64,000 bases of DNA from a plasmid: sequence record NZ_CP013482.1, one strand, 5' to 3'. Below the pieces are notes generated by a model. The model made no database searches and was not told the origin of the DNA. It was given only the letters and a program-made list of their open reading frames with translations. The translations under genes and the position numbers were made by a program. Shown piece by piece: positions 7,139 to 59,953 of the stretch (position 1 is the stretch's first letter; each line of letters starts with the position of its first letter).

Positions 7139-7658
7139 GGCGGCCCCCTTCGAGTTCGACGAAGCCCGCGCGGCCGGAATCATAGGCGTCCTCGACCCAA
7201 GCGAAGTGGAATACCTTGGCGTTGGCTACGGTCAGCAGGCGGGCGCGCAATCCCGCGAACGACAACGGCAGCGTTCGGATAACTCCAGACAGGGAGATAG
7301 GCGTGATCGAGCTGCCCACGGGTAGCTGCGTGGCCGCGTGGCTCAAAGCGATGGCGAACCACGGCACCAGGTCACTGTTCGGTCCAGCAATGCGACGTGC
7401 GACGGCAGCTTCGGTGAGGTGGTCGGGATCCGCCAGCAGCACAACCAGGTCGACGACCGTATCGAGCGCGTCGGAATCCGACAACGCGTCTTCGTGGAAC
7501 GCCCCCGCATGCTCCGCTTCAATCGGGTCAAATTCCGCTTGCACGCCGGGTTGATAGGCGTCGGTCAGCTTGTCCGACACGGCGGACGATCTGACCCAGG
7601 GGCGAACGCTGGCGCCCTCATCCAGAGACGCGAATTGGTCAATTGAGTGCATTGTCAC
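7131..7658 (-). CDS. TraD-position hypothetical protein
   Basis: ORF coupled by ATGA overlaps to traE and traC. Confidence 0.5.
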   Translation of the reverse strand: MTMHSIDQFASLDEGASVRPWVRSSAVSDKLTDAYQPGVQAEFDPIEAEHAGAFHEDALSDSDALDTVVDLVVLLADPDHLTEAAVARRIAGPNSDLVPWFAIALSHAATQLPVGSSITPISLSGVIRTLPLSFAGLRARLLTVANAKVFHFAWVEDAYDSGRAGFVELEGGRHD

Positions 7659-15615: not shown

Positions 15616-15639
15616 GTATCGCGGCGGTAGCCGCTGCCT

Positions 15640-15760
15640 CGCAGAGCAGGATCCCCGTTGAGCACTCCGTGCGAATAAGGGATGTGAAAGTAGCTAACCG
15701 GCCTGCCGGTTAGCTACTTTCACCTATCCTGCCCGGTCTTCGACCGCGATTACTCCGGGA
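15640..15760. promoter_or_regulatory. oriT: Origin of transfer, RP4 type: 19-bp inverted repeat 15684..15702 / 15705..15723 and nic site ATCCTG|C at 15726..15732
   Basis: gtgaaagtagctaaccggc ct gccggttagctactttcac ctATCCTGcccgg. Confidence 0.85.
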
Positions 15761-18696: not shown

Positions 18697-19656
18697 TTAG
18701 CGGGACAATCCTCGGCCTTGATGCTGACCGACCGCCGCAACAACGGCACGCCCCGTGGTCTGATTGTAAGAGATAGATTTGCTGCTGCCAATTTCAGGGG
18801 ATTTATCGAAATTAGACCGTTCATGAACGACAAACTGCTTCCCGACCTGCTGGAAAACACTAACCTTGTCGACGTGGACTATCGCACCTTCGGTTGTTGC
18901 CTTTCTGTCTGCTGGCACGGCCAGGGAAATGTTATAGATGCCTGGTTTAAGACCGTTCGCCTTATCCACCCGATCATTGCGCCAGGTTGGCTGCCCCGAC
19001 GCATCGCTGGGTGGTTGCTCGCTTTGAACGATTCGTTGACCATTCATGACGAGTACACGGTGCTTCATGAATCCGCTCCTCGGTTCGTGGTACCGCCCTT
19101 GAATTGGAGCGATCACCGGTTCAATGATGGCGGCGAGCGCCTTCGAGTCCGCATTTACTACCGCCAAATCGCGCGCGAAGTAAAGTCGCGCTCTCGCCTC
19201 CCTGTCCACAGGAAGCCGTGACCAGCCCAACTCAAATCCGGCCTGCATGGCCAGGTCTGATGTGAACTGTCGTAGCGTCCTGCTATTCCCCTCGCGAAAC
19301 GGATGAACTGCGTCCAGCTCACCGTACAAATGCGCTACCTTCGTTGCGAAGGCTCTCTGATCTAGTTGTTTTAAGTAGCCGTCTGCCGACAGGCTATCGA
19401 AGATTTTCGCCAGCTCAGGCACGACAGCGCGCAGGTCTCCGGCCCAGTCATACACCCCCTCAAAAATACGGCGGTGCGTCTCTCTCAGTCGGCCAGGGCC
19501 GAACGGCAATGTGATGGGGGAGGTTGCTATCGCGACAAGATTGAAAGCGACCATTTGCCCCTCAAAGGCATCTAGGTCGTGCTGCGTCCGACAGTCAGCC
19601 AGGTTTCTCAGGACTGTCGAACCGTCGTAGCAGTAAGGATCTCTGCGCGCCGTCAT
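18697..19656 (-). CDS. Fic-domain toxin (VbhT-like) with a ~130-aa C-terminal extension
   Basis: Fic motif HPFREGNSRTLR; N-terminus YCYDGSTVLRNL; start overlaps the antitoxin stop. Confidence 0.8.
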   Translation of the reverse strand: MTARRDPYCYDGSTVLRNLADCRTQHDLDAFEGQMVAFNLVAIATSPITLPFGPGRLRETHRRIFEGVYDWAGDLRAVVPELAKIFDSLSADGYLKQLDQRAFATKVAHLYGELDAVHPFREGNSRTLRQFTSDLAMQAGFELGWSRLPVDREARARLYFARDLAVVNADSKALAAIIEPVIAPIQGRYHEPRSGFMKHRVLVMNGQRIVQSEQPPSDASGQPTWRNDRVDKANGLKPGIYNISLAVPADRKATTEGAIVHVDKVSVFQQVGKQFVVHERSNFDKSPEIGSSKSISYNQTTGRAVVAAVGQHQGRGLSR

Positions 19657-40098: not shown

Positions 40099-40203
40099 GA
40101 CCGCCCAAAGAATAACCACCACTCAACACGAGTGTCGCGGGTGATAAAGCGCATTTGTTTAGTTGTACTAATTACCTTCGGCATATATTACGAGGACGTT
40201 GAC

Positions 40204-43200
40204 ATGAAAATTCGCATTTCTCGCGATCTTTCAAGGAGAATCCGGGCCGGCTTCTGCGCCGGGTTGGTTCTCCTCTCCTCGCTGCAACCGTGCTTTGCTG
40301 CCGCCAATTTGGACGACGTGGTCAAGGCAAATGCCGCGTGGGTTCCGAAAGATCACATCAATCAGGCTGAGCTACAGGACAAAGAAAAGGACGCTGCCGA
40401 CAAGGAGCGTATCCAGGGCGAATGGAGTGCGCTGGACGTTTCTCTCGCCCGCGACCCGCTCGGCGCAGCAAAGCAACGAGCTACCGGCGCGGCGACCGAA
40501 GCCGCACAGCGGATGTTGAATCAATTCGGCTCTGCCAAGCTGTCCTTGGGTGCCGGAGACGGCTTTAAGAACGGCAGTCTGGATGTGCTGCTTCCGCTTC
40601 GAGACACCGACAGCAATCTCACCTTCACGCAGCTCGGCTTCCGCCGATCGAATGCGTTGTCCGACAGCTACCGTTCGACGTTGAACATCGGTGTTGGACA
40701 TCGACACTTCTTCAACGGTGGCAAATGGATGATCGGGGGGAATGCCTTCTTTGATCATGACATTTCCCGAGACCATCTTCGCGGTGGTCTCGGCCTTGAG
40801 GCATGGACTGATTACCTGCGTCTGTCCGCCAATGCCTACCTGCGCATGAGCGGGTGGCAAGACTCTCCGGATATTCGCGGCTATATGGAGCGTCCTGCGA
40901 ACGGCTGGGACGTTCGCGCCGAAGGATATTTGCCTGCATTCCCTCACCTTGGCGCACGCCTCTACTACGAACAGTATTACGGCCAGAAGGTCGGGCTGTT
41001 CGGTACTGGAAGTTTGCAGCGCAACCCCCATGCAATTACTGTCGGCCTCACTTATCAGCCAATCCCGCTGTTTTCATTGGATCTCGACTATCGCGCCGGC
41101 CAGGGTGGCGTGTCACAGACGACGGTTCGTGCGAACCTGACTTACAAAATTGGCGTTCCTCTCGATAAGCAATTGCGAGCCTCATCGGTTCGCGATTCAA
41201 AGCTCTTGAAAGGCAGTCGTTACGAGCTGGTCAACCGGAATAACGAGATCGTTCTGGAGTACCAAAAGAAGGAAGCTCGCCTGACAATCCCGACTCAAAT
41301 TAGCGGGTATCCGGGCACAAGCACGACGTTCGCGGTCAACTCGTACACAGCCCTTGGGTTCTCATCTTTTGCCTGGACTGGTACTGCTGCGTCGTTTGTT
41401 CAATCATATTCCGGCGGAACCGCTACGCTCGCGCTTCCTTCCTACAACCAGAGTGGAACCAATACGTACACTCTCCAAGCGGTTGCCACTGAGACGGATG
41501 GCGCTGTCGCACGATCCAACGTCATGACGGTGACTGTAAATCCGCTGTCGGTAAGTCTCGATCGGAGCAAACCTACCGCCTCCGCTGATGGGCGCGACTC
41601 TGTGACGTTTACCGCCACTGTGATCGGGACCAACTCTGAACCTCTTGCCGACCAGGCAGTTGATTGGAAAATTCCGGCCAGCGCTACCGTTGTTTCCTTA
41701 ATGGCGCGCACAAACAAGGCCGGGAAGGCTGACGCGATTGTCACGGCGAAGTCTGCCGCCGTGATTCACGTCACTGCGACCTCAACGTTGTCCGGCGAGA
41801 CGGCATCCAATTCCGCAGCGTTCATAGGCGATCCTACGACGGCTGGCGTTGCTACGCTTGTGGCTCAACCTACCGCGATCGCCGCTAACGGCACGAGCAA
41901 ATCGATATTGACGGCGACATTGAAGGACGCCAAGGGCATCACGCTTGGATATGGCGTTCCGGTCAAGTGGGCGACGACCCTTGGCACATTGTCCGCCGAC
42001 ACGAGTGTCACCGATTCCAACGGCCAGGCCGTCGTTACACTGACCTCGGCTACGACGGCGGGCACGGCCACGGTGACGGCTTCCGCTATCGCTGGCAATA
42101 AAACGGCTGACGTTGCATTTACGCCGGATGTGGCAACAGCAAATGTTGCCTCGCTCACGGCTGCGCCGGCAGCGATCCCCGCCAATGGCGCCAGTAAATC
42201 GACGCTGACGGCGACTATCAAGGACGCGAACGGAAACACGGTGGGCGCCGGTATTCCTGTCAAGTGGCAAACAACCGCCGGCACGCTTTCGGCTGCGAAC
42301 TCGCAGACCGATACGTCAGGCGTTGCAATCGTAACGCTTACCTCCGCGACCGCCGCAGGGATTGCGAACGTGACCGCCACGACCACGGCGGGCAACAAGA
42401 CCGCACCTGTTGCGTTTGTGCCGGACACTGCCACGGCTGGCGTGGTGTCGCTCGTGGCGAATCCGACCAGCATTGCGGCCAACGGCAGCAGCACGTCCGC
42501 ACTGACGGCCACGGTCAAAGACGCGAGCGGCAACACCGTAGGTGCTGGGGTCACGGTGAACTGGTCGACCTCGGCCGGTAGCCTGACGGGCACGTCGAGC
42601 GTGACCGACGCCAGCGGCATCGCCACGATGACCCTTAAGTCAGCAACGACGGTCGGCGTCGCTACGGTATCGGCAACGGCCGTCGCAGGCAGCAAGACGG
42701 CCAACGTGACCTTTGTGCCGGACACGGCTACGGCTGGTGTGGTGTCGCTCGTGGCGAATCCGACTAGCATCGCAGCCAACGGCAGCAGCACATCCACGCT
42801 GACGGCCACCGTCAAGGATGCTTACGGCAATGCGGTGGGTGCTGGCGTCACCGTGAACTGGTCGACCTCGGCCGGTAGCCTGACGGGCACATCGAGCGTG
42901 ACCGACGCCAGCGGTATCGCCATGATGACGCTCAAGTCGGCAACGACGGCGGGCACAGCCACGGTAACGGCAGCGGCAGTCGCCGGCAGCAAGACGGCCA
43001 ACGTGACCTTTGTGCCGGACATGACTACTGCGGCCGTGGTGTCGCTCGCGGCGAATCCGACCAGTATTGCGGCCAACGGCAGCAGCACTTCCGCTCTGAC
43101 GGCCACGGTCAAGGATGGCAACGGTAACGCAATGGGTGCCGGCGTCACCGTGAATTGGACGACCACGGCGGGTAGCCTGGCGGGCACGTCGAGCGTGACC

Positions 43201-44865
43201 GACGCCAGCGGCATCGCCACGATGACGCTCAAGTCGGCAACGACGGTCGGCGTCGCCACGGTAACAGCAGCGGCCGTCGCCGGCAGCAAGACGGCCAACG
43301 TGACCTTTGTGCCGGACACAGCCACGGCGGGCGTCGTTTCGCTCATGGCGAATCCGATCAGCATCACGGCCAACGGCAGCAGCACGTCCGCACTGACGGC
43401 TTCGGTGAAGGATGCGAGCGGCAACACCGTGGGTGCTGGTGTCACCGTGAACTGGTCGACCACGGCCGGTAGCCTGACAGGTACGTCGAGCGTGACCGAC
43501 GCCAGCGGCATTGCCACGATGACGCTCAAGTCGGCTACGACGGCGGGCACGGCCACGGTAACGGCTGCGGCCGTCGCCGGTAGCAAGACGGCCAGCGTGG
43601 CGTTTGTGCCGGATACGGCCACGGCGGGCGTGGTGTCGCTGGTGGCGAATCCGACGAGCATTGCGGCCAACGGCAGCAGCACGTCGACGCTGACCGCCAC
43701 TGTCAAGGACGCCAACGGTAACGCCTTGGGGGCCGGTATCGCTGTGAACTGGTCGACCACGGCGGGGAGCCTGACGGGAACGTCGAGCGTGACGAACGCT
43801 AGCGGCGTTGCGACGATGACGCTCACATCGCCCACGACGGTCGGTGTCGCCACGGTAACGGCTGCGGCGGTCGCCGGTAGCAAGACGGCCAGCGTGACGT
43901 TTGTTGGCGATCCGGCAACGGCCCGCGTGGTCAGCCTGACGCCGCCGACTGCCACTGCATATGTTGGCGGGATTGCGACCACGTACACGGCCACGGTGAA
44001 GGACGCCAACGGCTTCACGGTTGGGGCCGGTGTCTCGGTCACATGGTCTGTGAGTGCCGGAACGCCGAGCGCCACCAGCACCGTGACTAATTCATCCGGT
44101 CAGGCGTCGATCAACGTTGTATCACCGAACGTGGTCGGTAGCGGGACGATCACGGCCAGTGCCGTCGCTGGTTCAGCGAATGCGACGATCAACTACGTTG
44201 CCAACATGAACACCCTGCGCGTTGTTTCTTTGTCGCCCAACATGAACAATGTCCCGGCAAATGGAAGCTCAACGGTGATGTTGCTTTCGTCTGTGCGCGA
44301 CGCATGGGGCAACAATCCGGGCGCGGGAGTCACGGTCAACTGGTCGGACTCGTTGGGGCGCTTGTCGGCGGGAGCTACGGCCACTGACGGGAACGGAACG
44401 GCGGTGAACTACCTGACGGCCCCCGGAGCGGCGGGCACCTCGTCCGTGAACGCGAGGATCGCGGCTACTGGTGACGGCGGTGTAGGCACAGCCGTTACGT
44501 GGGTGAGTACCTTTAGCGCTGCGAACGTCAGTGTGTCAACGTCGCCGGATATGCAGCCGAACGCGAACGGCATCCTGTACGTGAGCGGCTTCATCACTAC
44601 GGCAACGCAGTCCTCTAGCGGGACGGTGTACATCACCGGCATCACCTACAACAACAGCTATGGCTCACAAAGTGCGTACATGGAAATCAACGGCGGCACC
44701 TATTGGGCCAACGCATCCGGCCTCTCGATTCCTTGGGGGTCGGGTGGGTCACTGGTGATACAACAGCACGAGGGCACGGGCATGGTTCCGGCCGTCTTCC
44801 AGTCGGTCACGTTGTCGCTTAGCACGGGACAAACGGTCACGCTTAATAGCGGGTCGGCACAGTGA
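40204..44865 (+). CDS. Giant inverse autotransporter adhesin (intimin/invasin family): signal peptide, beta-barrel translocator, ~9 Big_1 Ig-like repeats, C-terminal domain
   Basis: N-terminal barrel region; ~100-aa repeats VVSLVANPTSIAANGSSTS..TATVKDA..G..VNWSTTAGSL; ORF begins at 40132. Confidence 0.8.
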   Translation: MKIRISRDLSRRIRAGFCAGLVLLSSLQPCFAAANLDDVVKANAAWVPKDHINQAELQDKEKDAADKERIQGEWSALDVSLARDPLGAAKQRATGAATEAAQRMLNQFGSAKLSLGAGDGFKNGSLDVLLPLRDTDSNLTFTQLGFRRSNALSDSYRSTLNIGVGHRHFFNGGKWMIGGNAFFDHDISRDHLRGGLGLEAWTDYLRLSANAYLRMSGWQDSPDIRGYMERPANGWDVRAEGYLPAFPHLGARLYYEQYYGQKVGLFGTGSLQRNPHAITVGLTYQPIPLFSLDLDYRAGQGGVSQTTVRANLTYKIGVPLDKQLRASSVRDSKLLKGSRYELVNRNNEIVLEYQKKEARLTIPTQISGYPGTSTTFAVNSYTALGFSSFAWTGTAASFVQSYSGGTATLALPSYNQSGTNTYTLQAVATETDGAVARSNVMTVTVNPLSVSLDRSKPTASADGRDSVTFTATVIGTNSEPLADQAVDWKIPASATVVSLMARTNKAGKADAIVTAKSAAVIHVTATSTLSGETASNSAAFIGDPTTAGVATLVAQPTAIAANGTSKSILTATLKDAKGITLGYGVPVKWATTLGTLSADTSVTDSNGQAVVTLTSATTAGTATVTASAIAGNKTADVAFTPDVATANVASLTAAPAAIPANGASKSTLTATIKDANGNTVGAGIPVKWQTTAGTLSAANSQTDTSGVAIVTLTSATAAGIANVTATTTAGNKTAPVAFVPDTATAGVVSLVANPTSIAANGSSTSALTATVKDASGNTVGAGVTVNWSTSAGSLTGTSSVTDASGIATMTLKSATTVGVATVSATAVAGSKTANVTFVPDTATAGVVSLVANPTSIAANGSSTSTLTATVKDAYGNAVGAGVTVNWSTSAGSLTGTSSVTDASGIAMMTLKSATTAGTATVTAAAVAGSKTANVTFVPDMTTAAVVSLAANPTSIAANGSSTSALTATVKDGNGNAMGAGVTVNWTTTAGSLAGTSSVTDASGIATMTLKSATTVGVATVTAAAVAGSKTANVTFVPDTATAGVVSLMANPISITANGSSTSALTASVKDASGNTVGAGVTVNWSTTAGSLTGTSSVTDASGIATMTLKSATTAGTATVTAAAVAGSKTASVAFVPDTATAGVVSLVANPTSIAANGSSTSTLTATVKDANGNALGAGIAVNWSTTAGSLTGTSSVTNASGVATMTLTSPTTVGVATVTAAAVAGSKTASVTFVGDPATARVVSLTPPTATAYVGGIATTYTATVKDANGFTVGAGVSVTWSVSAGTPSATSTVTNSSGQASINVVSPNVVGSGTITASAVAGSANATINYVANMNTLRVVSLSPNMNNVPANGSSTVMLLSSVRDAWGNNPGAGVTVNWSDSLGRLSAGATATDGNGTAVNYLTAPGAAGTSSVNARIAATGDGGVGTAVTWVSTFSAANVSVSTSPDMQPNANGILYVSGFITTATQSSSGTVYITGITYNNSYGSQSAYMEINGGTYWANASGLSIPWGSGGSLVIQQHEGTGMVPAVFQSVTLSLSTGQTVTLNSGSAQ
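41830..44220. repeat. Tandem ~300-bp DNA repeats (Big_1 modules); five central copies (42421..43920) are near-identical
   Basis: Direct repetition of gtgccggacacggc(c/t)acggc(t/g)gg(c/t)gtggtgtcgctcgtggcgaatccgac. Confidence 0.9.
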
Positions 44866-46800: not shown

Positions 46801-46904
46801 TCGGGGTTGGTCGACAAGTGAATTGCGGCGTCAGTCTACGCGATTTCTGACCGCAAACGGCGTCCTTGACGCTTGCCACAGGCGCCCATACACTGCCGCC
46901 ACTT

Positions 46905-47080
46905 TGGTGCCCGCTGCCGCCCCTGTGCCGGCAGTAGTTAAACGGGAATCAGGCGGCTCCCCCTCTCCGGGCGGTGGCTAACCTGAGCTGCCCCCGCAAC
47001 GGTAAGCGTCTACTCGATACGTTGCCCCTCACACCACTGCGCGCAAGCGTGGGAAGGTGGGGCCGCGTGAGCGCCAGCCC
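46905..47080 (+). ncRNA. Cobalamin (AdoCbl) riboswitch in the btuB leader
   Basis: GGTGCC.., AAACGGGAA, CCCGCAACGGTAAG, B12-box-like ACCACTG..GGGAAGGTG; upstream promoter TTGACG/TACACT near 46869..46899. Confidence 0.6.
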
Positions 47081-47202
47081 GGATACCGGCCAGAGAGGGG
47101 AGTTGCGCCGAATTTTTCGCCAAAGACGAGTTTGACGCGCACTCGCATAGCGCCACGGCCTGCGGGGAGCGGGCCGGGTGAAATCGCACCGGAACTCTAA
47201 CA

Positions 47203-49056
47203 ATGCAAACGAAACTCGCGGCCGGCGCTGCCGCGCTCGCGCTCATTTCCTCGCCGCACGTTGCAACAGCCCAAACCGCCGACGACACAGGCAGCGCGGT
47301 ACTGCCCAAAACCGTTGTCACCGCCGACAGGGCACCCCAACGCCTTCAGGACGCTATCCCACAGACCACGCTTATCGACAGCCAGGCGATCACGGATTCC
47401 GCCGCCAACGACCTGCCCGGCCTGCTGCGCTTGGCACCGGGCGCTCAGGTCGTCAGCAACGGTGGGCCGGGGTCTACTTCAAGCCTATTCCTTCGCGGCT
47501 CGCAAGCCAGCCAGTCGCTCGTCCTTATTGACGGCGTGCGAGTCGATTCGGTAAGCGCCGGCTCAGCGCAGATTTCGCAAATCCCACTCGATCAAATCGA
47601 TCATATCGAAATCGTGAACGGCAACGTGTCTGCGCTGTACGGGTCAGGGGCGATTGGGGGCGTCGTTCAAATATTCACGAAGGACGGCGGCAATCATCCG
47701 CCTAAATTCTTCGCCTCGGCAGGGTACGGCAGCTATCACACACAGACGCAGAATGCCGGCGTAAGTGGTGCGCTCGATGCCGACGGTCGGACGACTTTTA
47801 GCGCGTCCCTGGCGCGGTACAAGACCGATGGTTTTTCATCCATCGACCCGGCCAAGCAACCAAGCGTAAACCCGAACGCCAACGGCTACCTCAACGAGAG
47901 TGGTAGCGCATCTATCAAACACCGATTCGTGAACGGTTGGGACGTGGGTGTCCGCTACTTTCAATCCAACGGCTACAACAGCTACGACAATGCTTACGGC
48001 CAACCTACCGACTTGAACTACGGTATTAGCAAGGTGCAGCAGGCATCCGTTTTCGCCAACGGAAACGTAACCGACTGGTGGAAAACGCACGTTACGATCG
48101 CAGCCGGCAACGACCGTAGTATCCAGAAAACGAACGGCCTCTATAACGGCCGGTTTGACACGGACAATAGGCAATACACATGGCAGAATGATTTCGCCAT
48201 CGCCAGCGGCCAGAAGATCCTCGCGGGCTATGAACACCTCGACCAGAGCTTTGATTCTAGTGCCTATGCCGCCCCCTCCCGTCGCGTCGACTCAGGCTTT
48301 ATCGGCTACAACGGGCGCTTTGGTGCTCATCAGTTTCAAGCTAACCTGCGGCGCGACCAGTACTCCGATTTCGGCGGTGCAAGCAGCTATTACCTCGGGT
48401 ACGGCTACGACATAACTGATAGCTGGAAGGTTCTTGCGAGCTATTCGGACGCCTTCCGCGCGCCGACCTTCAACGACCTGTACTACCCCTACGGCGGCAA
48501 CACCAACATTCGCCCAGAGACAAGTCACTCCGTCGAAGCTGGAGTGCAGTACGCCACCGACGCGCTTGGCGTGATGCGTTTGACAGTGTTCCAAACTCGC
48601 TACTCGAATCTCATTCAGTATGCGTCAGACCTTGCGGGCAACTACACGGCACAGAATGTGGGCACGGCCAAGGTGCAGGGCCTGGAAGGCTCTTGGAGTG
48701 GGCAGGTTTACAAGACCGACGTGCGCGCTTCTTTCACTTTCCAAAATCCTGTGAACGAGGACACGCATACCGATCTGAGCCGCCGCGCACGGCACTTCGC
48801 GTCGTTCGCTGTCAACCGGAACATTGAGAGTGTGCGCGTGGGCGCTGAATGGATTCTGAGCGGTGCGCGGCTCGATGGCACCAAGCACCTCGGCGGATAC
48901 GGCCTAGTGAACCTGTCGGCCCGCTACAACATCACAAAGGCGTGGTACGTCGCCCTGCAAGTGCAGAATCTGCTGAACAAGGATTACGAGCTTGCCTACT
49001 CGTATGAAACGCCCAAACGCAGCGCTTTCATCACTCTCGGCTGGCAGCAATTCTGA
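47203..49056 (+). CDS. btuB: TonB-dependent outer-membrane cobalamin receptor BtuB-like
   Basis: Signal peptide, TonB box region, plug and barrel, C-terminal aromatic residue (..GWQQF). Confidence 0.8.
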   Translation: MQTKLAAGAAALALISSPHVATAQTADDTGSAVLPKTVVTADRAPQRLQDAIPQTTLIDSQAITDSAANDLPGLLRLAPGAQVVSNGGPGSTSSLFLRGSQASQSLVLIDGVRVDSVSAGSAQISQIPLDQIDHIEIVNGNVSALYGSGAIGGVVQIFTKDGGNHPPKFFASAGYGSYHTQTQNAGVSGALDADGRTTFSASLARYKTDGFSSIDPAKQPSVNPNANGYLNESGSASIKHRFVNGWDVGVRYFQSNGYNSYDNAYGQPTDLNYGISKVQQASVFANGNVTDWWKTHVTIAAGNDRSIQKTNGLYNGRFDTDNRQYTWQNDFAIASGQKILAGYEHLDQSFDSSAYAAPSRRVDSGFIGYNGRFGAHQFQANLRRDQYSDFGGASSYYLGYGYDITDSWKVLASYSDAFRAPTFNDLYYPYGGNTNIRPETSHSVEAGVQYATDALGVMRLTVFQTRYSNLIQYASDLAGNYTAQNVGTAKVQGLEGSWSGQVYKTDVRASFTFQNPVNEDTHTDLSRRARHFASFAVNRNIESVRVGAEWILSGARLDGTKHLGGYGLVNLSARYNITKAWYVALQVQNLLNKDYELAYSYETPKRSAFITLGWQQF

Positions 49057-52008: not shown

Positions 52009-52641
52009 TTGAACCTTATGCCCGCGCAATTCCGTGTGATTCTCGACGCCTATTCCCTTCAGAAATTTCACGTTGACCAAACCGAGTATCAAAAGCGGTT
52101 GGTTGCTGTTTTGCCGGACTTTGAGCTGTCGTTCAGCGTCGGAACAACAGGCGGCGACACGATCGCGATTCGTGATGGAATACAACTAGTCGAAGCGACA
52201 AACGCGGACAAGACTCAGCAGACCCAGTTTTTTCAAGCGGCCAAAAAGGTATGGGCGGATCTCATGCGAGCGACGAAGACGTATCCGGTCAACGCCCGGG
52301 AACGCAACTTCCGCGTGACCGTCATTTCGACAATCAACGGGTACACCGCATCCGTTGTTGAGCGCATCGCTAGTCAGGAGCAGCCGGTTGCTCTCAACGT
52401 CCCGCTCCACGCGAGTATCAATCCGGGTTCGTTCTATCAGCACCGTCACTGGTTTCTGAAGATGCTCCTTGAGTTCGTAGATAGCGAGCTGATGGCGTGG
52501 GCTGTGACGAAATGCGACGGAGAAGCCGGCCCTGGCAAACATAACGCTCACATTCTCGCAAATCTGCTCGGATGGCCTGAAGGGTATCCGGACGCCTGCG
52601 GTGACGATCTTTCGCGCCTTCAGGTGCCGCGATTGGACTGA
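52009..52641 (+). CDS. Hypothetical protein, 210 aa
   Basis: Clean ORF, convergent with the minus-strand operon. Confidence 0.5.
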   Translation: MNLMPAQFRVILDAYSLQKFHVDQTEYQKRLVAVLPDFELSFSVGTTGGDTIAIRDGIQLVEATNADKTQQTQFFQAAKKVWADLMRATKTYPVNARERNFRVTVISTINGYTASVVERIASQEQPVALNVPLHASINPGSFYQHRHWFLKMLLEFVDSELMAWAVTKCDGEAGPGKHNAHILANLLGWPEGYPDACGDDLSRLQVPRLD

Positions 52642-53210
52642 AATACCTGATCGACTCGATTTTCGTCCGGCCGAGGTGTTTCGAGTGTGCTGGCAGTTGA
52701 GGCGAACAATCCCGATCGAGCGGCGTCGGGATTCGCAATGGTGCCGAAGGATGCAGCCTTAACTGCGTTCTCGGCCAGCAGCAATACTTGCTCAACTGCG
52801 CCGATCAATTGAGCCGGGTTCGGCGTCACGAACCCATTTAGACCTTGCGGATACCGACCACGATACGGCCAGTCGTGGAGCGTATTCAGCAGCACACACC
52901 AATCCGGGGGCGACGTGGGAGCGACAAGCGCCAACTTGGCTGCTGCGCCCCACAACGCACTGAGATCGTGCCCAAATGGCTTCTTGCTCAACTTCGAGGC
53001 AGGTATCTTCGCGGACCAGAGCAGCGCCTTCAACGCCCCCTCAAGTGCCTGGGCAGCGAGCAGCGCACCGGGTAGATGAGTTTCCACGGTGCTCGCCTCT
53101 AATGCCTTCGCCCCCTGCCAAAGCTGTTTGGCGGTCACCAAGAAACTCTCGCCGTCCGAGGGCCGCCGGAAGGCAACAGGCGGTGTGACCATCATTACGT
53201 GTCCATTCAT
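52620..53210 (-). CDS. Hypothetical protein (operon gene 11)
   Basis: ORF 196 aa. Confidence 0.45.
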   Translation of the reverse strand: MNGHVMMVTPPVAFRRPSDGESFLVTAKQLWQGAKALEASTVETHLPGALLAAQALEGALKALLWSAKIPASKLSKKPFGHDLSALWGAAAKLALVAPTSPPDWCVLLNTLHDWPYRGRYPQGLNGFVTPNPAQLIGAVEQVLLLAENAVKAASFGTIANPDAARSGLFASTASTLETPRPDENRVDQVFQSNRGT

Positions 53211-53234
53211 CTCGGGCAGCTCACTTTTTCCTTG

Positions 53235-53735
53235 TCACTTTACACAACGCAACGCAGCAACCGGGGCAGGCGCGTCACCCGCTTTGTTGCGAAGATCCGG
53301 ATAGCGCGCCTCAATCGTCGTTGCGTTTCCGGTTGGTGGGTTGTGTGCCGTTCCATTGATGCAAACTGCGGCACGACCGGTTTCATCGAAACCCATGTGG
53401 ACCGCCGCGCTTTCGGGTACAGCGCCGATGCCGCTAACATAAACCGTCTGCTGTCCGGCGACCGTCTTCAATGTGGACCAAACTGTAGTTACCGTGTAGG
53501 CCACAGTCGATATTGCGAGCACCGCCGTCAACGCAATCATCACCGCTTGCTGACGCCCTTGTGCCTTACCATCCTTCTCTGCTTGGCTAAGAATTTTGTC
53601 CAGGCGGTGTGAGAGTCCATTCATCGCCTCGTTCGTTCGATGCTGCATGATGCGCTGATACTTCTGCCCCTCCCCTGGCGCAACGAAATCAGCGTTCAGA
53701 ATTGTGTCGAGATGAATGTCCTTCCAGTGGGTCAT
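53235..53735 (-). CDS. Membrane-anchored hypothetical protein (operon gene 10)
   Basis: Single TM segment. Confidence 0.45.
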   Translation of the reverse strand: MTHWKDIHLDTILNADFVAPGEGQKYQRIMQHRTNEAMNGLSHRLDKILSQAEKDGKAQGRQQAVMIALTAVLAISTVAYTVTTVWSTLKTVAGQQTVYVSGIGAVPESAAVHMGFDETGRAAVCINGTAHNPPTGNATTIEARYPDLRNKAGDAPAPVAALRCVK

Positions 53736-53750
53736 TATGTTTTCCAGTTG

Positions 53751-54083
53751 CTAAAGTGAACTGATGCGCGCCGGGTCTGTACCTACAGACCGGATGGCGA
53801 GCCATACTTGCAAGCGCTCTTCCGGTTCAGCCACTGGATGGGCGAGATCAATCCCGAAGGGCTTCACAATAGCGAACACCCCGGGCGCAATGTTGTACAG
53901 TCGGTCGACTCGCCGCTCGGCTCCTATGACCTCGCGAATTCTCTGGAAAAGGCGCTGCCTCTCCCATCGGACTGGGGACCTAGCCCTAAACGGCAAACCC
54001 GATAGGTGCGCTAGGGCAGCGTCTATGTCTGATTCGGATACCACCATCGCCTGCGGTGATCTCCAGAGGGTTGCGAGACTCAT
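53751..54083 (-). CDS. Hypothetical protein (operon gene 9)
   Basis: ORF 110 aa. Confidence 0.4.
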   Translation of the reverse strand: MSLATLWRSPQAMVVSESDIDAALAHLSGLPFRARSPVRWERQRLFQRIREVIGAERRVDRLYNIAPGVFAIVKPFGIDLAHPVAEPEERLQVWLAIRSVGTDPARISSL

Positions 54084-54104
54084 ATCGCCTTTTCCGCGGT
54101 TTTC

Positions 54105-54446
54105 CTAAAGCGCTGACGGTCGCAGATAGACCTTGTCACTGCTTCGATACTTCCGAAGGAATTCGGCCAAGAATGACCTCACCGCATCGTAGTCGTCGAG
54201 AAATGCCATGACCTCTGGATCGCTCTCATCGTCTTCAGGAAGGTCATGATTAACGAAGTACTGCAAGGCCATCTGCCACTTGACGTCCTCCTCCTCCGTG
54301 ATTTGGTAGTTCGCTTCCAACCACTTGTACTCGTCTGACGTGCCGTCTAATCCCGGTTCTCCCCAGACGCGCTCCATCTCGCCGATGACGGAATAGAACA
54401 TCGAAGTTTCAATTCCGTCGTCGTCTTCATCTACGGGCGTGGTCAT
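54105..54446 (-). CDS. Highly acidic protein (DNA-mimic or anti-restriction candidate)
   Basis: 113 aa rich in D/E (MTTPVDEDDDGIE..EEEDVKW..EDDESDPE). Confidence 0.45.
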   Translation of the reverse strand: MTTPVDEDDDGIETSMFYSVIGEMERVWGEPGLDGTSDEYKWLEANYQITEEEDVKWQMALQYFVNHDLPEDDESDPEVMAFLDDYDAVRSFLAEFLRKYRSSDKVYLRPSAL

Positions 54447-54454
54447 GATTCTTC

Positions 54455-54730
54455 CTATTTGACGTCAGCTTTGCGATCGCGAAACTGCTTTGCGATTTCC
54501 CGCGCGCGCTCCGCGCCTTTCTTCGACGCCTCCGCGAGTTTCCCGTTTTCTGCCGACATGCGTCCTGCCGTCGCTCCGCCTCGCATTTTTGCTTCGAGGG
54601 GTTGTAGTGCCCCGATTTCGGCTGCTCCGCCGACAGTCATCCATGCCAACTGGTGCTCCTTATTGACGAAGACTCTCTGTCCCTTCACAGGCTCACCGCA
54701 TCCACATTTGCAGTTCCGCATCACGGCCAC
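54455..54730 (-). CDS. Small CxCGCG-motif protein
   Basis: NCKCGCGEPV N-terminus. Confidence 0.4.
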   Translation of the reverse strand: MAVMRNCKCGCGEPVKGQRVFVNKEHQLAWMTVGGAAEIGALQPLEAKMRGGATAGRMSAENGKLAEASKKGAERAREIAKQFRDRKADVK

Positions 54731-54736
54731 TCCCGT

Positions 54737-54958
54737 CTAGTTGTTCGGATGTCCAACATAGCAACCAGCAAGCACGAACAGTGCCGTGAACTCATGCTGA
54801 CAAGACTCGCACACGTACTCCTGGTGAACCGTCTTGGTGCCGATCGCGCAAGCACCCATCGTCACCTCTGTTGATTCGCAGGATGGGCACAGCGTCGTGC
54901 TGGACGCGATGACTCGGTCCTTCCATTCGTCAGTTCCAAGCATCCTGCTCTCCTGCAA
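54737..54958 (-). CDS. Zinc-ribbon protein (two CxxC pairs)
   Basis: CPSCES..CESCQHEF. Confidence 0.45.
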   Translation of the reverse strand: MQESRMLGTDEWKDRVIASSTTLCPSCESTEVTMGACAIGTKTVHQEYVCESCQHEFTALFVLAGCYVGHPNN

Positions 54959-55067
54959 ATTTCATGGCAATCTTTCCGTTGTCAGCGGAGCCAGCCCTAA
55001 TGCCGCATGGCTTCCTCGGGATCTGGATGTCCTTGTAGGTCGCCATAGCGGGCTTGTGCTTTCTGGC

Positions 55068-55565
55068 CTAAGTCACGATGAACGTGGTAGCGTTGGCAAC
55101 CCGGCTTCTGAGCATCTTGTTCCACAGCTCGCGCCGACGGTGCTCATGGATTTCGCCCCAAGGCACCAGCTCGATCCCGGCCATTTCGTAGTCCCCGCGA
55201 GCGCGCATCGCGGCGTAGTTCTCCGCGCTCGTAACGATGTGGACGGACTCGCACTCAATCACAGTTCGCACGAACTCGTCAGGGTCCTGTCGCTGCTCCC
55301 GTCGATGTCGATCAACAAGCGCCGTGAGTGTCGTCTGAATTCTCTTGTGGTGCTCTAGTCGCAGGTCGCCGCTTTGACTCGCGATTGCCTCCATTGAAAC
55401 TAGCCCAGAAAACTGCCTCACTCGACGTTTTACACTCTCGGCCATCACGTGCGTGTACCACGCTCTCGCTCGACTGGCCGTCACATTAGGGCGGCCTGAC
55501 AGCCACATTACCTCTTCGTAAATCGAAGTGAGGGCGCGAAGATCGTCTAAGTGTCGGTCGTTCAT
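55068..55565 (-). CDS. Hypothetical protein, 165 aa
   Basis: ORF. Confidence 0.45.
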   Translation of the reverse strand: MNDRHLDDLRALTSIYEEVMWLSGRPNVTASRARAWYTHVMAESVKRRVRQFSGLVSMEAIASQSGDLRLEHHKRIQTTLTALVDRHRREQRQDPDEFVRTVIECESVHIVTSAENYAAMRARGDYEMAGIELVPWGEIHEHRRRELWNKMLRSRVANATTFIVT

Positions 55566-55574
55566 TTTCCGTGG

Positions 55575-56141
55575 TTATCGCCGCATGCGGTCGTTCGGAT
55601 TGGGATACCGTTGCAACACCTCCAACCCCGTTAGCGCGCATGGGTCGATTGTGTACTCTTCCTCGCCAAGCCATCTACTGTGTTTCCCAGGGCCGGAAAT
55701 AATTGCCATTGCGTCAACATTCGCACTGAGTAGAACGCCACCGCCGGAGTAGTAAGCGTTCAGACCACTTCCGAACATTTCTGCGGTACGACGCTGCGAC
55801 GACCAACAGAGGCCAATCCTCCCGGCATTGAAGCGCTCGGTGCTCTCGCCACGATACAGCGTCAACGACGGGCCTTCGTAGCGTGGTAACACGGCCAGCA
55901 GCAGCCGAACCAAGAGCTTGTCGTCGCCGATTTCTTCGCGAATGCGACCTCCGTACGTCACCCAACTGGTGAGGCAATTCTCGCGGTGCTGCCCGTTGGA
56001 GGAGCATTCGTCGGCGACTCGCTGAAGGGCGTCTACCCAGCTCAGGCCATTCGCCTTAGCCTCCTCTCGACTGGGCATATGGTGACCGCCAGAGAGAAAC
56101 GATGACGTCAAAGAAGCAATGCACATTTGCGAGTAAACCAA
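55575..56141 (-). CDS. Hypothetical protein with a weak ADP-ribosyltransferase-like residue pattern (YRG .. S .. EEE); start uncertain
   Basis: LYRGES then SANVD about 42 aa later, then GEEEY. Confidence 0.35.
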   Translation of the reverse strand: MVYSQMCIASLTSSFLSGGHHMPSREEAKANGLSWVDALQRVADECSSNGQHRENCLTSWVTYGGRIREEIGDDKLLVRLLLAVLPRYEGPSLTLYRGESTERFNAGRIGLCWSSQRRTAEMFGSGLNAYYSGGGVLLSANVDAMAIISGPGKHSRWLGEEEYTIDPCALTGLEVLQRYPNPNDRMRR

Positions 56142-56149
56142 CCTTTTTC

Positions 56150-56407
56150 CTAGTGGCTCACGGCCGGATAGACGAAATCTTCGTCGGGCGTAAATTCGTA
56201 CCGGGCAGGATCGCTCTCGAACATCACGTAGCCCTCGACACCCTTCTCGCGGAGCACCTTCACTGCGCGTCGGGCGTTCGCGACCTCAAATTCGTGAAGC
56301 CTGCCCGTGTCGGCAGGGCGACCGCCGCTCGACGCTCCCTCGCCACTGATCAGGAGCGTCATTTCTGCGCCCGAACCGGCCTTGCGTCCAAAAATCTGGC
56401 TTTTCAT
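56150..56407 (-). CDS. Hypothetical protein, 85 aa
   Basis: ORF. Confidence 0.4.
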   Translation of the reverse strand: MKSQIFGRKAGSGAEMTLLISGEGASSGGRPADTGRLHEFEVANARRAVKVLREKGVEGYVMFESDPARYEFTPDEDFVYPAVSH

Positions 56408-56525
56408 CGAGTTTTCCTACACGCCCAACGATCGGCAATCCGCGCACTGCTTTTGCAGATGCCAGCAGGCTCAAACGAACCTGGGTGGCGAGCCGGGAAC
56501 AAACGCTCTCGGCCAAAAAGGTGTT

Positions 56526-56843
56526 TCAGATGTTGTTCTCGCAGAAGCCTGCGAGCGGCACGGGAGACGCGAGTGTTGAAATGATCGTGTACCCCGGATA
56601 AGTCTGCTTTGCGGTTCGTGAGAACGTCGCAACCGCTTCATCCTCGTCCGTGGCCGCGATAATCCCGTGAACAGGCTTAATTACGTCCGTCGAGCCGTCC
56701 TTGCGCATGACTGCGGAGACCATGAATCGAGTCGGTTGGTTGACATGCCAGCCTGCGCGGCCGCCCGGCGCTGCGGATGCATAGCCCTGCGACGAAAGGA
56801 TGGCTGCGAGCAGGATGATCCTCAGCATGGCCGCCTGTCTCAC
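56526..56843 (-). CDS. Secreted hypothetical protein (signal peptide ..AILSSQGYASA)
   Basis: ORF 105 aa. Confidence 0.45.
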   Translation of the reverse strand: MRQAAMLRIILLAAILSSQGYASAAPGGRAGWHVNQPTRFMVSAVMRKDGSTDVIKPVHGIIAATDEDEAVATFSRTAKQTYPGYTIISTLASPVPLAGFCENNI

Positions 56844-57136
56844 AGTTCCGGATTGGCAAGGAATGCCGCCGTTTCGAGCGTGCTTGCGGCATGCTCCCGG
56901 CCCGAAAGTGCAACAGCCACGTGAAACAGGGCGACGGCACGGTTGTTGCTGTCGAGCATCCCCGATGCCGCCCGGATGAGTGCAATACCCTTCACCACCG
57001 CTTTCGCTTGCTCCGACGATCCGGAGCTACCGAGACGCTCCACCATCGATTCCATCGATTCGATTTCCGAGCCAAATTCCATATCACCCTCGCCGTAAGA
57101 GCGGCACATGAGCCGCGCAATGTTCAATGAATACAT
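56840..57136 (-). CDS. Hypothetical protein (operon gene 1)
   Basis: ORF 98 aa; overlaps the next gene. Confidence 0.4.
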   Translation of the reverse strand: MYSLNIARLMCRSYGEGDMEFGSEIESMESMVERLGSSGSSEQAKAVVKGIALIRAASGMLDSNNRAVALFHVAVALSGREHAASTLETAAFLANPEL

Positions 57137-57171
57137 TGTAGATAATTATTGTGTTGCGCGCAACCCAATAA

Positions 57172-59139
57172 TTAAGGACGGCCGGTAATGATGGCCTCTA
57201 ACTCCCCCGGTCGGCTCCGTCGGTACAGTTGATAGTAGTGGGCTCCGCCCTCAAGATTCAGGTGAGTGGTGTCGTTGCTTCTGTAAAGCGGGATGTTTCC
57301 GGCGGCCGTGGCACACATCCCATTACTACATGCGGCACCATACGTGTGCATCACTTTCACCGCCGGCAGGCGGGCCGCCAAATTCCCTACAACCTCATGA
57401 TTCGCCGCCTCAACGCCGGCCGCCGACTGGCGGCTGAATTCGCACGATCGAGCGAACGGTGACCACCTCAATCCGTTGTACAACGGACAGTTGATGAGCC
57501 CGTCAGGCATGGGGGGAACATCATCAAGGATGACGACTTGCTTGCCGGCGTCGAGCAGCGCCTTCGCCGTGCGGTAGAGATCCTCGTCAATCTGCTCTGG
57601 GCCAAACCCTCGCTCGTTACGCTTCACGTTTGACGGCGCTACGTACGCCCCCCATGTACCCGATAGGAAAACAACTTCAATGTCGCTGCTTTTCAGCAGA
57701 TAGTTCATGACCAGTCGATCATGTTCGCGGCATGGTTCATCCATATTCGGCCGCGTGCCGATCGGAGGATCCGCGACCGGAGGGCAGAGCGGCCGCGCCA
57801 TGTCGTGAACACTTAACCCGAACTCGTTGCCCAACTCCCGGAAGAAGTACACGAAGTGATAGGCGTGAGAGTCGCCCCACAGGACGGCCTTTCTTCCGCC
57901 TGGCGCCCCGACAGAACATTTCGCTTCCGACGTAACCCCTACAGCCCCCCAGCACAGTGCCCCTCGTCCCTGCATCCAGTCACGGTCGGTCGACGCGGTA
58001 TAGATTTCTCGAAATTGCTGGGGATACATGAACAGAAAGTTTGTGGACGTTCTTCCCACCGCCACAGTAGAAGCAGCAAGTGCGATCGGTGCCAGGATGT
58101 AACCGATCACGGCTCTCCTAAAGCTCACTCGCGCATAGCGCAACGGCTGCTCGACATACCGATGGGAAAGCGCAGCAACAACGAAACTCAACGCTACCGC
58201 GCAGACGATCGCGACGTCGCTCGTCAGCCCGAACCGCCGAAACGCAAAAAGTATCGGCCAGTGCCAGAGATAGATGCCATACGACCGGAGGCCGATCCAG
58301 AGCGCAACGCGATTTCCAAGCACTGCACGGATCACTTTCGAGTCGTGTCCCGAAAGAATCAGCAGAGCAGCGGGCACCGTCGGGGCGAGCGCCCAAACTC
58401 CAGGGAACGGCTTTCCGCCAATAAAAGTGGCGCATGCCAGCACGCCAATAAGCGAGAGAACGGCTAAGAGTCCACGAGCGGTTCGCGCGCTATTCCACTG
58501 GCCTAGAAACGCAACTACAACGCCCAAGATGAACTCGAACGCACGATACTGGCTGAAGTAGTAAGCCCCTGGCGCTCCCGCGCGGACTGCCATCTCTGAC
58601 CAAGCCAGAGACGCAAGCCCGAGTGCAATGAACGAAGCAATTTTGACGCGTGCTCGCGCATGACGAAGCCCAAACAACACCAGCGGAAACACCAGATAGA
58701 ATTGCTCTTCGACCGAGAGAGACCATGTGTGAAGTAGCGGCTGTTGCTCCGCCGTCGGTGCGAAGTAGCCCGTCATCTTCGCCAGGTAGACATTCGATGC
58801 GAAGCCCGCGACGTAGGCCATGTTCTTGGCAACCTCCATCGCGTCGTCCGGGATGAGAAACACCACGCTGAAAGCGAAGGTGACTGCCATCATCACGAAC
58901 AATGCCGGAACTAACCGTTTCGCACGGCGCACGTAGAAGTCGCGGAAGCGGAAGTTCCCCGCCGCTTGAGCACTACAGATGCTCCGGGTGACGACGAATC
59001 CAGAGATTACGAAAAAGATATCGACCCCAACGAAGCCACCGGCGAGTTGGCTAACCCCAGCATGGCAGGCTACGACGAGAAGCACGGCGAGCGCGCGGAG
59101 GCCGTCCACGTCGGGACGATAGTTTTTATTGCTGGTCAT
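57172..59139 (-). CDS. Acyltransferase-3 family O-acyltransferase with C-terminal SGNH-like domain (OafA/OatA type)
   Basis: N-terminus DGLRALAVLLVVACH; ~10 TM helices then a soluble domain; 655 aa. Confidence 0.8.
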   Translation of the reverse strand: MTSNKNYRPDVDGLRALAVLLVVACHAGVSQLAGGFVGVDIFFVISGFVVTRSICSAQAAGNFRFRDFYVRRAKRLVPALFVMMAVTFAFSVVFLIPDDAMEVAKNMAYVAGFASNVYLAKMTGYFAPTAEQQPLLHTWSLSVEEQFYLVFPLVLFGLRHARARVKIASFIALGLASLAWSEMAVRAGAPGAYYFSQYRAFEFILGVVVAFLGQWNSARTARGLLAVLSLIGVLACATFIGGKPFPGVWALAPTVPAALLILSGHDSKVIRAVLGNRVALWIGLRSYGIYLWHWPILFAFRRFGLTSDVAIVCAVALSFVVAALSHRYVEQPLRYARVSFRRAVIGYILAPIALAASTVAVGRTSTNFLFMYPQQFREIYTASTDRDWMQGRGALCWGAVGVTSEAKCSVGAPGGRKAVLWGDSHAYHFVYFFRELGNEFGLSVHDMARPLCPPVADPPIGTRPNMDEPCREHDRLVMNYLLKSSDIEVVFLSGTWGAYVAPSNVKRNERGFGPEQIDEDLYRTAKALLDAGKQVVILDDVPPMPDGLINCPLYNGLRWSPFARSCEFSRQSAAGVEAANHEVVGNLAARLPAVKVMHTYGAACSNGMCATAAGNIPLYRSNDTTHLNLEGGAHYYQLYRRSRPGELEAIITGRP

Positions 59140-59246: not shown

Positions 59247-59953
59247 TCAGATCCGCGTCGCAAGCCAAACCACAGGATCAGAACCGGAAATCAACAGAAA
59301 CAGCCCCGCACCCGACAGAAACGGGCCAAAAGGCAACACGTCTTCCGCGCGACTACCCCATCTAATCACCGCGAGGAATAAGCCCGTCGCGGCCGCAATC
59401 AGGAGCATTGACGGAACTGAGGCGACGCCCATCCACGCGCCTATACCGGCGGCCAGTTTAAAGTCGCCCTGCCCCATGCCGTCCTCGCCTTTGCGGATCC
59501 GCCGGAATGCATTTACCGCCCAGAGCGCAGCAAAAGCCGCTGTCGCGCCGGCGACCGACTCGGCTACAGACGTGCGCCACCCCATCCAATTCGCAAAATT
59601 CCGACGCCAATCAACGGGAGGGTGATGACGTCGGGAAGCATGAGTGTTTGGTAGTCGACGAGGGCAAGCAGGGTCAGCAACCATGCCAGAGTTGCCCCCA
59701 CGACGACGATGCCCGCACTCTGACTTCTAGCCGTCAGAGCCGCACATATCGCGGCAAACGCTAAGGTGACGGCCGCTTTTGTACTTGCTTGGTACGCAAC
59801 CCCCTCATCGCACTCGTTCTCGCATGCGAGAACCATTGCCGCTCGCGACGCCGCAGGGAAAAGGAGCGCCCCTGCGCAAAGCCCCGCAGCGCCACTCAGC
59901 ACCAGGCTCAACAGGTTCATGACTGCGCTGTCCTGCTCCGTCCGTGCCACCAC
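59247..59953 (-). pseudogene. Type IV prepilin peptidase (A24 family) split by a frameshift near 59564..59684
   Basis: N-part LVDYQTLMLPDVITLPL in ORF 59564..59953; C-part GQGDFKLAAGIGAWMG in ORF 59247..59684. Confidence 0.55.

Follow-up and report, generated by a model that had tools for sequence, protein, structure and literature searches.

Eleven small co-oriented genes among the cargo of an IncP-1-like plasmid from Pandoraea apista are probably a recombination-assembled array of single-gene accessories, one of them with a predicted ADP-ribosyltransferase fold

We describe a block of eleven small genes at positions 52620-57136 of a 64,000-nucleotide stretch of sequence record NZ_CP013482.1 (the window), which belongs to a 77,293 bp plasmid of Pandoraea apista on which public annotation calls all eleven products 'hypothetical protein'. 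The eleven open reading frames (ORFs), numbered here from g11 to g1 in the order of transcription, all lie on the minus strand, as a first-pass annotation of this DNA had reported. That annotation described their stops and starts as overlapping or near-abutting, which holds for eight of the ten junctions, where at most 24 nt separate neighboring genes, and fails for two gaps of about 110 nt; from g11 to g1 the spacers measure -4, 118, 8, 9, 109, 6, 8, 21, 15, and 24 nt. Since all eleven genes have protein-level homologues in other replicons, their GC content at third codon positions (0.59-0.72) resembles that of TraI, TraG, KorB, and TrbL, and most of the ORFs are preceded by ribosome-binding sites of the GGAA type, we consider all eleven to be real genes. 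The co-oriented run extends upstream past g11 through an acyltransferase gene, a frameshifted prepilin peptidase gene, and small ORFs to at least position 63966, and the eleven genes are therefore only part of a longer string.

The upstream edge of the block is formed by g11 (56840-57136), a 98-aa ORF for which NCBI annotates an 80-aa version and whose start is probably M19, giving 80 aa. It is followed by g10 (56526-56843, 105 aa), with a hydrophobic, signal-peptide-like N-terminus ending in ASA/A; g9 (56150-56407, 85 aa), which is widespread on plasmids of Burkholderia, Ralstonia, and Pandoraea; g8 (55575-56141, 188 aa), in which an N-terminal helical domain precedes a C-terminal domain with a predicted ADP-ribosyltransferase (ART) fold; and g7 (55068-55565, 165 aa), which is shared with temperate Pseudomonas phages, where it lies in a moron region. 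Next come g6 (54737-54958), a 73-aa mini-protein with a CxxC...CxxC zinc-ribbon pattern and sub-threshold zinc-ribbon matches; g5 (54455-54730, 91 aa), a basic protein with an isoelectric point (pI) of 9.9 and cysteines at positions 7, 9, and 11 (C-x-C-x-C); g4 (54105-54446, 113 aa); and g3 (53751-54083, 110 aa), a basic protein with homologues on diverse conjugative plasmids. The block ends with g2 (53235-53735, 166 aa), a single-pass membrane protein with a transmembrane segment at residues 64-82 (KD19 2.11), and g1 (52620-53210, 196 aa), a predicted orphan HEPN protein of the PF05168 type that lacks the Rx4-6H motif. Several features that had been read from the sequence beforehand are thus present: two cysteine-cluster or zinc-ribbon mini-proteins (g6 and g5), two secreted or membrane-anchored proteins (g10 and g2), a strongly acidic 113-aa protein (g4, pI 4.1, 29 D+E against 9 K+R, net charge about -20), and flanks consisting of a convergent 210-aa ORF and an acyltransferase with AT3 and SGNH domains. 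The block was also said to show, by its motifs, no known function of a plasmid backbone, and none of the 11 proteins reached a curated threshold in Pfam, in NCBIfam or, for g1-g10, in PADLOC.

The first-pass annotation had further singled out the block as the likeliest seat, within the window, of an undescribed multi-gene system. A single defence system, in which all eleven products or fewer act jointly against phages or plasmids, would fit the tight packing and common orientation of the genes, the presence of HEPN and ART folds, both common in defence systems, and the location in a cargo region near vapBC and a resolvase. The distribution of the genes, however, does not bear this out. A concatenated tblastn search with all eleven proteins against 72,556 plasmids returned 111 records, and in each of the 50 that were listed, except for Pandoraea oxalativorans pPO70-2, only a single gene was matched. 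The different genes, moreover, match different taxa: g9 matches plasmids of Burkholderia and Ralstonia; g3 those of Yersinia, Serratia, Aeromonas, Delftia, and Azonexus; g8 those of B. vietnamiensis, Enterobacter, and Acetobacter; g7 Dyella; g6 Cupriavidus and Burkholderia; g5 B. glumae; g2 B. vietnamiensis G4; g10 Paraburkholderia; g4 Stenotrophomonas; and g11 Undibacterium, while g1 has no homologue in PLSDB. We also compared 33 loci that carry g8 relatives (28 from GTDB species representatives and 5 others). Outside Pandoraea, no other gene of the block occurs within 6 kb of a g8 relative at these loci, and in an all-versus-all clustering of the genes within 3 kb on either side the only family that recurs at three or more loci is the g8 family itself. 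Co-occurrence is therefore confined to near-identical Pandoraea elements.

Within Pandoraea, the block is made of segments that differ in their history. A stretch of 2,680 bp from g3 to g9 (53738-56417) is 99.1% identical to a contig of Pandoraea soli (locus L007) and has sharp intergenic ends, the identity breaking off 13 nt beyond the stop codon of g3 and 10 nt short of the start of g9. The same seven genes are found in P. terrigena at 93-100% amino-acid identity; g1, g2, g10, and g11 are absent from the relatives in both species, and the left breakpoint at 53738 is shared with pPO70-2. These sharp ends indicate that at least three pieces, g11-g10, g9 to g3, and g2-g1, were joined in intergenic DNA. 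We found no inverted or direct repeats that would bracket the block as a transposon or cassette array, and an integron-like cassette array, which would have repeated attC-like sites between its genes, was rejected, as the intergenic spacers, most of them only 6-24 nt long, contain no repeat family. Homologues elsewhere are likewise embedded in strings of small co-oriented hypothetical genes, which often adjoin mazEF, phd-vapC, par or imuA-imuB modules or integrases. A second, diverged copy of g6 (82-88% identity) lies about 2.3 kb upstream of the first in P. soli (L007 8671-8868) and P. terrigena (L024 4656-4868), and P. terrigena has an additional locus with g8 and g4 (L025), which indicates that small genes are duplicated and reshuffled within one genome.

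Because the genes are distributed singly, the g8 loci share no neighbors, and mosaic boundaries run through the block, we conclude that it is not one system and that it is probably an array of independently distributed single-gene accessories, serving in conflict or establishment, that was assembled by recombination. Arrays of this sort occupy the variable parts of plasmids, genomic islands, and prophages in the Burkholderiaceae. A joint defence system, by comparison, is already largely refuted by the comparative data and appears to us extremely improbable; apart from the distribution and the internal boundaries, a check of g1-g10 against PADLOC-DB 2.0 gave nothing above noise (two chance-level matches, with E values of 0.028 and 0.077), and the HEPN protein has no catalytic Rx4-6H motif. 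Some observations weigh against an assembly of independent genes. Tight spacing and uniform orientation would suit an operon of shared function equally well, and the g3-g9 segment travels as a unit among Pandoraea elements, which, at 99% identity, is uninformative as to whether selection maintains the linkage. Seven of the proteins (g2, g3, g5, g7, g9, g10, and g11) have no functional assignment, and cooperation within a subset, such as g4-g3 or g6-g5, is conceivable, with few independent homologous loci to compare.

The 188-aa product of g8 had been flagged for a weak ART-like residue pattern, a guess that structure prediction bore out at the level of the fold. The models support an ART fold for the C-terminal domain, with a split beta-sheet ART/NAD-binding core, in that two methods agree, each with modest scores; the ARTs listed for this fold are KptA, ART2.2, TreX, TreTu, diphtheria toxin, exotoxin A, Vis, C3, LT, and AcrIF11. 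The g8 protein itself has no match in Pfam, NCBIfam or PADLOC and matches PHROG 30882, a group of 'unknown' function, with E=7e-41. An exhaustive profile search at E<=1e-3 collected 973 clusters (50% identity) of relatives, nearly all of them stand-alone proteins of 160-250 aa, and none of 77 diverse members had a Pfam match. Against PDB sequences, the A1 profile of g8 had no match at E<=10, and the hits of the A3 profile, six in all and weak (E>=0.02), were confined to its N-terminal region and fell on helical proteins that are unrelated. A sequence-profile link from g8 to solved ARTs or to Pfam was thus sought and not obtained.

Among the 77 diverse members, R97, which lies in a Y-R-G motif on beta-1, G110, and W113 are invariant, and E160 and D166 are nearly so. 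W113 is followed at beta-2 by [ST]114, a Ser/Thr that is not invariant, and E160 lies just before beta-5. ARTs have been grouped, by signature residues at beta-1, beta-2, and beta-5, into R-S-E, H-Y-[EDQ], and H-H-h clades (PMC9503650). Judged by its sequence, the layout of g8 resembles the R-S-E type with the order reversed, since E160-x-[E/Q]162 inverts the canonical [Q/E]-x-E; R97, W113, and E160-x-[EQ]162 do not reproduce that canonical order, and we leave the clade unassigned. The family also differs from known ART families and structures in having no detectable sequence similarity to them and in carrying an extra N-terminal helical domain. From the RNA 2'-phosphotransferase Tpt1/KptA, to which it is 13-16% identical, g8 is set apart by the conserved residue on beta-1, an Arg (R-S-E-like) where the H-H-h clade of KptA has a His, and by not being linked to genes for RNA ligase or 2H repair at the 33 loci. 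Mobile elements are well known to carry fast-evolving ARTs (PMC9503650), so a family of this kind would not surprise a specialist.

The settings in which g8 relatives occur are varied. GenBank phages contain no close relative of g8, but prophage contigs in IMG/VR do, with 17 viral loci in that collection. In one lambdoid-like prophage lineage the g8 relative lies in the early region, between replication genes and an orphan DNA methyltransferase; in four other phage lineages it is divergently transcribed beside an integrase, a terminase or an Abi-like gene; and some relatives are solitary, next to transposases or as isolated morons in phages. This scatter bears on the possibility that the block stabilizes the plasmid through a toxin-antitoxin or toxin-immunity pair, in which g8 or g1 would be the toxin and g7 or g9, or g2, would neutralize it. 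ART and HEPN domains often serve as toxins (DarT, RES, Tre toxins, HEPN-MNT), and the 8-9 nt spacing of g9-g8-g7 recalls a toxin-antitoxin operon. Yet g7 and g9 are missing from all g8 loci outside Pandoraea, no neighbor family recurs, and some relatives are solitary. Since g8 has no conserved partner, a self-toxic enzyme held in check by a dedicated antitoxin or immunity protein is unlikely.

The case for g1 as a toxin runs into similar difficulties. Structure prediction gives g1 the all-alpha HEPN fold, and the protein scores 17.5 bits (E 0.0048) against PF05168, below the gathering threshold of 22, with 12 of 19 homologues matching this family at E<=0.01 (best 2.4e-6). The GHDL and GRYP motifs are conserved in the g1 family. 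At the site of the Rx4-6H motif, R119-Y-P is invariant and is followed by Q/S-G-L-N-G-F, and 18 of the 19 sequences have no His at +5 to +7. In Paraburkholderia (loci L010-L013), neither an MNT nucleotidyltransferase nor any other conserved gene lies beside the g1 homologues, whose neighbors differ from locus to locus. We considered g2 as a conserved partner of g1 and rejected it: the genes upstream of the homologues encode proteins of a similar length (162-166 aa) but are unrelated to g2 and to each other. A PDB sequence search with the g1 family yielded only noise. Its sequence features make g1 an orphan HEPN protein, probably without RNase activity, and the absence of both Rx4-6H and an MNT partner makes a binding or regulatory HEPN more likely than a toxin. 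The same two absences distinguish g1 from PF05168-type HEPN proteins (TT1696, AF0298, ST0689) and from HEPN-MNT pairs, and a C-terminal tail of some 40 disordered residues and the sub-threshold Pfam score set it apart further. With no conserved partner for either g8 or g1, a toxin-antitoxin or toxin-immunity module in the block is very unlikely.

The convergent 210-aa gene next to g1 (52009-52641, plus strand) overlaps it by 22 nt. Its N-terminal part is about 37% identical to a gene that lies directly upstream of the Paraburkholderia HEPN homologue in the same orientation (L010 3446-3934, L011 1237-1728), which suggests that this stretch was inverted locally in the Pandoraea plasmid.

The remaining genes show the same pattern of separate histories. 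In the temperate Pseudomonas phages Lodos and Atpa001, ORFs between lysis or tail genes and the integrase share 66-67% identity with the g7 product, which is also 48% identical to a Dyella plasmid ORF; seven g7 loci are found in IMG/VR, and the invariant motifs of g7 (LEH...T..ENYAAM) gave no family assignment. A 174-aa ORF runs antisense to g7 at 54834-55358 (plus strand), with a counterpart in Pandoraea soli (L007 10784-11308), where public annotation calls the antisense ORF and not g7; because g7 has protein homologues in Dyella and in Pseudomonas phages, we take g7 to be the real gene. Homologues of g3, at 43-53% identity, occur on plasmids of all five genera named above, directly after korA-parA-parB in a Yersinia IncP-like plasmid and after a hipBA module in Aeromonas pAsa4. 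In pPO70-2, an IS256-family element splits the g3 homologue (L001 10224-11489), whose DNA matches the copy in the window at 99.6-100% identity. Dozens of plasmid homologues of g9 (50-79% identity) are known, including one in Ralstonia insidiosa within a small-gene string downstream of parA-parG and others in Pandoraea downstream of mazEF-pmp3. ORFs on plasmids of Cupriavidus and Burkholderia match the g6 product at 64% identity, g5 is 82% identical to an unannotated ORF in a small-gene array of a B. glumae plasmid, and g2, which lies outside the segment shared with P. soli, is 54% identical to an ORF in a small-gene string on pBVIE03 of B. vietnamiensis G4. Homologues of g10 on Paraburkholderia plasmids are 61-63% identical, and g11, which has no Pfam or NCBIfam match, is 50% identical to an Undibacterium plasmid ORF. 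PDB sequence searches with g3, g4, and g7 gave only noise.

These comparisons also speak to whether the block could be inert baggage, that is, decaying or selfish hitch-hiker ORFs that contribute nothing to the fitness of plasmid or host. Most of the proteins have no family assignment, and there are signs of decay or rearrangement in the frameshifted prepilin peptidase upstream and the IS256 insertion in the pPO70-2 homologue of g3. All eleven frames are nonetheless intact, homologues remain 36-80% identical across genera, which indicates purifying selection, and the g8 family keeps its invariant residues across 77 diverse members. We therefore regard inertness as highly improbable.

The plasmid is of an IncP-1-like conjugative type, and the block lies in a cargo region between the end of the trb operon and Tra1. 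We identified genes for a MOBP relaxase TraI (12496-15180), TraG, topoisomerase III, a TraL-like ParA, KorB, IncC, and TrbL, and a P-type trb operon spans about 27.6-40.1 kb. The IncP nick consensus TATCCTG/C is found on the plus strand at 15725-15732, between traJ and traK, placing the nick at 15731/15732, and because a traJ-II RNA motif (RF01760, 91.8 bits; 15635-15734, minus strand) overlaps this consensus, oriT and the direction of transfer are fixed. In the RP4 model, the plus strand is transferred 5' to 3' with traK-traL-traM leading. The block starts 36.9 kb downstream of the nick and on this model would enter a recipient after 37-41 kb, past the kfr/kor, trfA-like, and trb regions and more than about 45 ORFs as estimated from ORF lists.

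This position bears on a further reading, an anti-defence or establishment island of single-gene counter-defence functions, such as an AcrIF11-like ART and an acidic mimic that blocks restriction, which would help the plasmid in new hosts and would match in function the anti-defence islands known from leading regions. Anti-defence genes are enriched in the first ~30 ORFs of the leading region (Samuel et al. 2024, PMC11541004), where they are reported to use the transferred strand as template (PMC11541004). The block agrees with the orientation rule to the extent that the RP4 model applies, as the nick motif lies on the plus (transferred) strand and the genes on the minus strand. It lies well outside the enriched stretch, and we rejected a leading-region island on account of the 37-41 kb from the nick. 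Hallmark anti-defence genes (ardA, klcA/ardB, psiB, ssb, acr, orphan methyltransferase) found no Pfam or NCBIfam match in the block.

The acidic protein g4 offers some encouragement for counter-defence. Its only PLSDB homologue (38% identity) is encoded on a plasmid of Stenotrophomonas rhizophila, likewise amid a string of small genes, and the gene directly downstream of it carries the annotation antirestriction protein ArdR. We saw this adjacency only once, with no counterpart in the window or at the other loci, and neither g3 nor g5 qualifies as ArdR-like, as no similarity to the Stenotrophomonas ArdR was found in the window or the compared loci. The g4 product has no Pfam, NCBIfam or PDB sequence match, known mimics of the ArdA/Ocr type included. 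For g8, the absence of an immunity partner, the precedent of AcrIF11 (PMC12421852), and the orphan methyltransferase beside its relative in one prophage lineage would all suit an anti-defence enzyme, but the divergent moron position in four of the five phage lineages fits defence or conversion functions expressed by a lysogen equally well. On balance, an island devoted to anti-defence seems rather unlikely. A bolder version, which builds on predicted structures and analogy, would make the g8 family a large unannotated group of solitary ARTs (~1,000 clusters) that modify host defence or core machinery in the way of AcrIF11 and T4 Alt/Mod, and the surrounding array, with the acidic g4, the HEPN protein g1, and the phage-shared g7, an anti-defence or takeover island in the cargo region, outside the leading region; we consider it unlikely. 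What stands of the first-pass proposal of a defence or anti-defence island is the presence of two conflict-type domains (ART and HEPN) and the occurrence of g7 and g8 in prophage moron regions; no known defence or anti-defence family was detected, with PADLOC covering g1-g10. In the array of independent accessories that we favor, the domains and the distribution across phages and plasmids point to functions in conflict between host and element or between elements, or in establishment.

Other genes of the plasmid deserve mention. The cargo region also holds an intimin-like adhesin, a riboswitch-controlled BtuB-like receptor, a resolvase, an H-NS protein, and vapBC. The adhesin, an inverse autotransporter of the intimin/invasin type (1,577 aa; 40132-44865, plus strand), follows directly on the trb operon and contains 6-8 tandem Big_1/Invasin_D3 repeats of 297 nt (99 aa) with 60-78% identity. 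A cobalamin riboswitch (RF00174, 84 bits; 46888-47108, plus strand) lies directly upstream of the gene for the TonB-dependent, BtuB-like B12 receptor (47203-49056, plus strand), and a vitamin uptake gene under riboswitch control is unusual cargo for a conjugative plasmid. Elsewhere, the ORF at 18697-19656 (minus strand) is a fusion with Fic at the N-terminus and KfrB at the C-terminus, and a polyvalent protein of 1,028 aa (4097-7183, minus strand) combines ArdC-N, an MPTase-PolyVal zincin, and two DUF5710 domains; the latter is the plasmid's recognizable gene of the anti-restriction type and lies at the lagging end. Upstream of the block, the prepilin peptidase (Peptidase_A24) gene is split into two overlapping ORFs (59247-59953, minus strand), with profile positions 2-36 in 59564-59953 and 41-104 in 59247-59684, a division that, as read from the sequence, indicates a frameshifted pseudogene or a sequencing error.

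The string of genes would probably be read through from upstream, as no internal sigma-70-like promoters or terminators were found; the scan, over 51.5-61.5 kb, gave 0 promoter-like sites and terminator-like sites at chance level and is uninformative for this organism. A palindromic hairpin of 32 nt (57143-57174; 13-bp stem, -10.1 kcal/mol, z = -4.2 against shuffled sequences), present once in the window, covers the stop codon of the acyltransferase and the 35-nt gap before g11 and is a possible terminator or operator at the upstream edge of the block. Predicted folding of the two larger intergenic gaps does not exceed that of shuffled sequence (z -1.1 and -1.4) and thus gives no sign of a structured RNA or a single-stranded DNA promoter. 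Each product would act alone on the physiology of the host or of a competitor. In this scheme g8, as its predicted fold suggests, would most likely use NAD+ to ADP-ribosylate a macromolecular target that its own host can do without; like phage T4 Alt/Mod or AcrIF11, it has no immunity or antitoxin partner. The g4 product may be a protein or DNA mimic.

An array of independent accessories has two known counterparts. The moron arrays of plasmids, integrative and conjugative elements, and temperate phages likewise consist of small, co-oriented, mostly unannotated genes that are each found separately and are shuffled at intergenic junctions, and g7 and g8 also occupy classic moron or nin-like accessory positions in prophages; the block differs from these arrays in its particular combination of genes, which is new, and in that no member has yet been characterized. 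With leading-region anti-defence islands (PMC11541004) it shares small co-oriented genes that have the transferred strand as template, an acidic protein with an ArdR-adjacent homologue, and an enzyme fold with anti-defence precedent. It departs from them in its distance from the oriT nick, in having no ArdA, KlcA, PsiB, SSB or Acr, and in that no Frpo or ssi was identified.

As a locus, the block is thus an unremarkable case of a variable region whose kind is known; with regard to the plasmid, the outcome is largely negative, and the block does not merit priority as a system. Two of its protein families are useful by-products. One is the orphan HEPN family without an RNase motif represented by g1. 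The other is the g8 family, which is absent from Pfam, NCBIfam, and PADLOC, is solitary, and moves between plasmids and temperate phages; on the strength of its predicted fold, it would make a tractable candidate for a new enzymatic factor of conflict or takeover.

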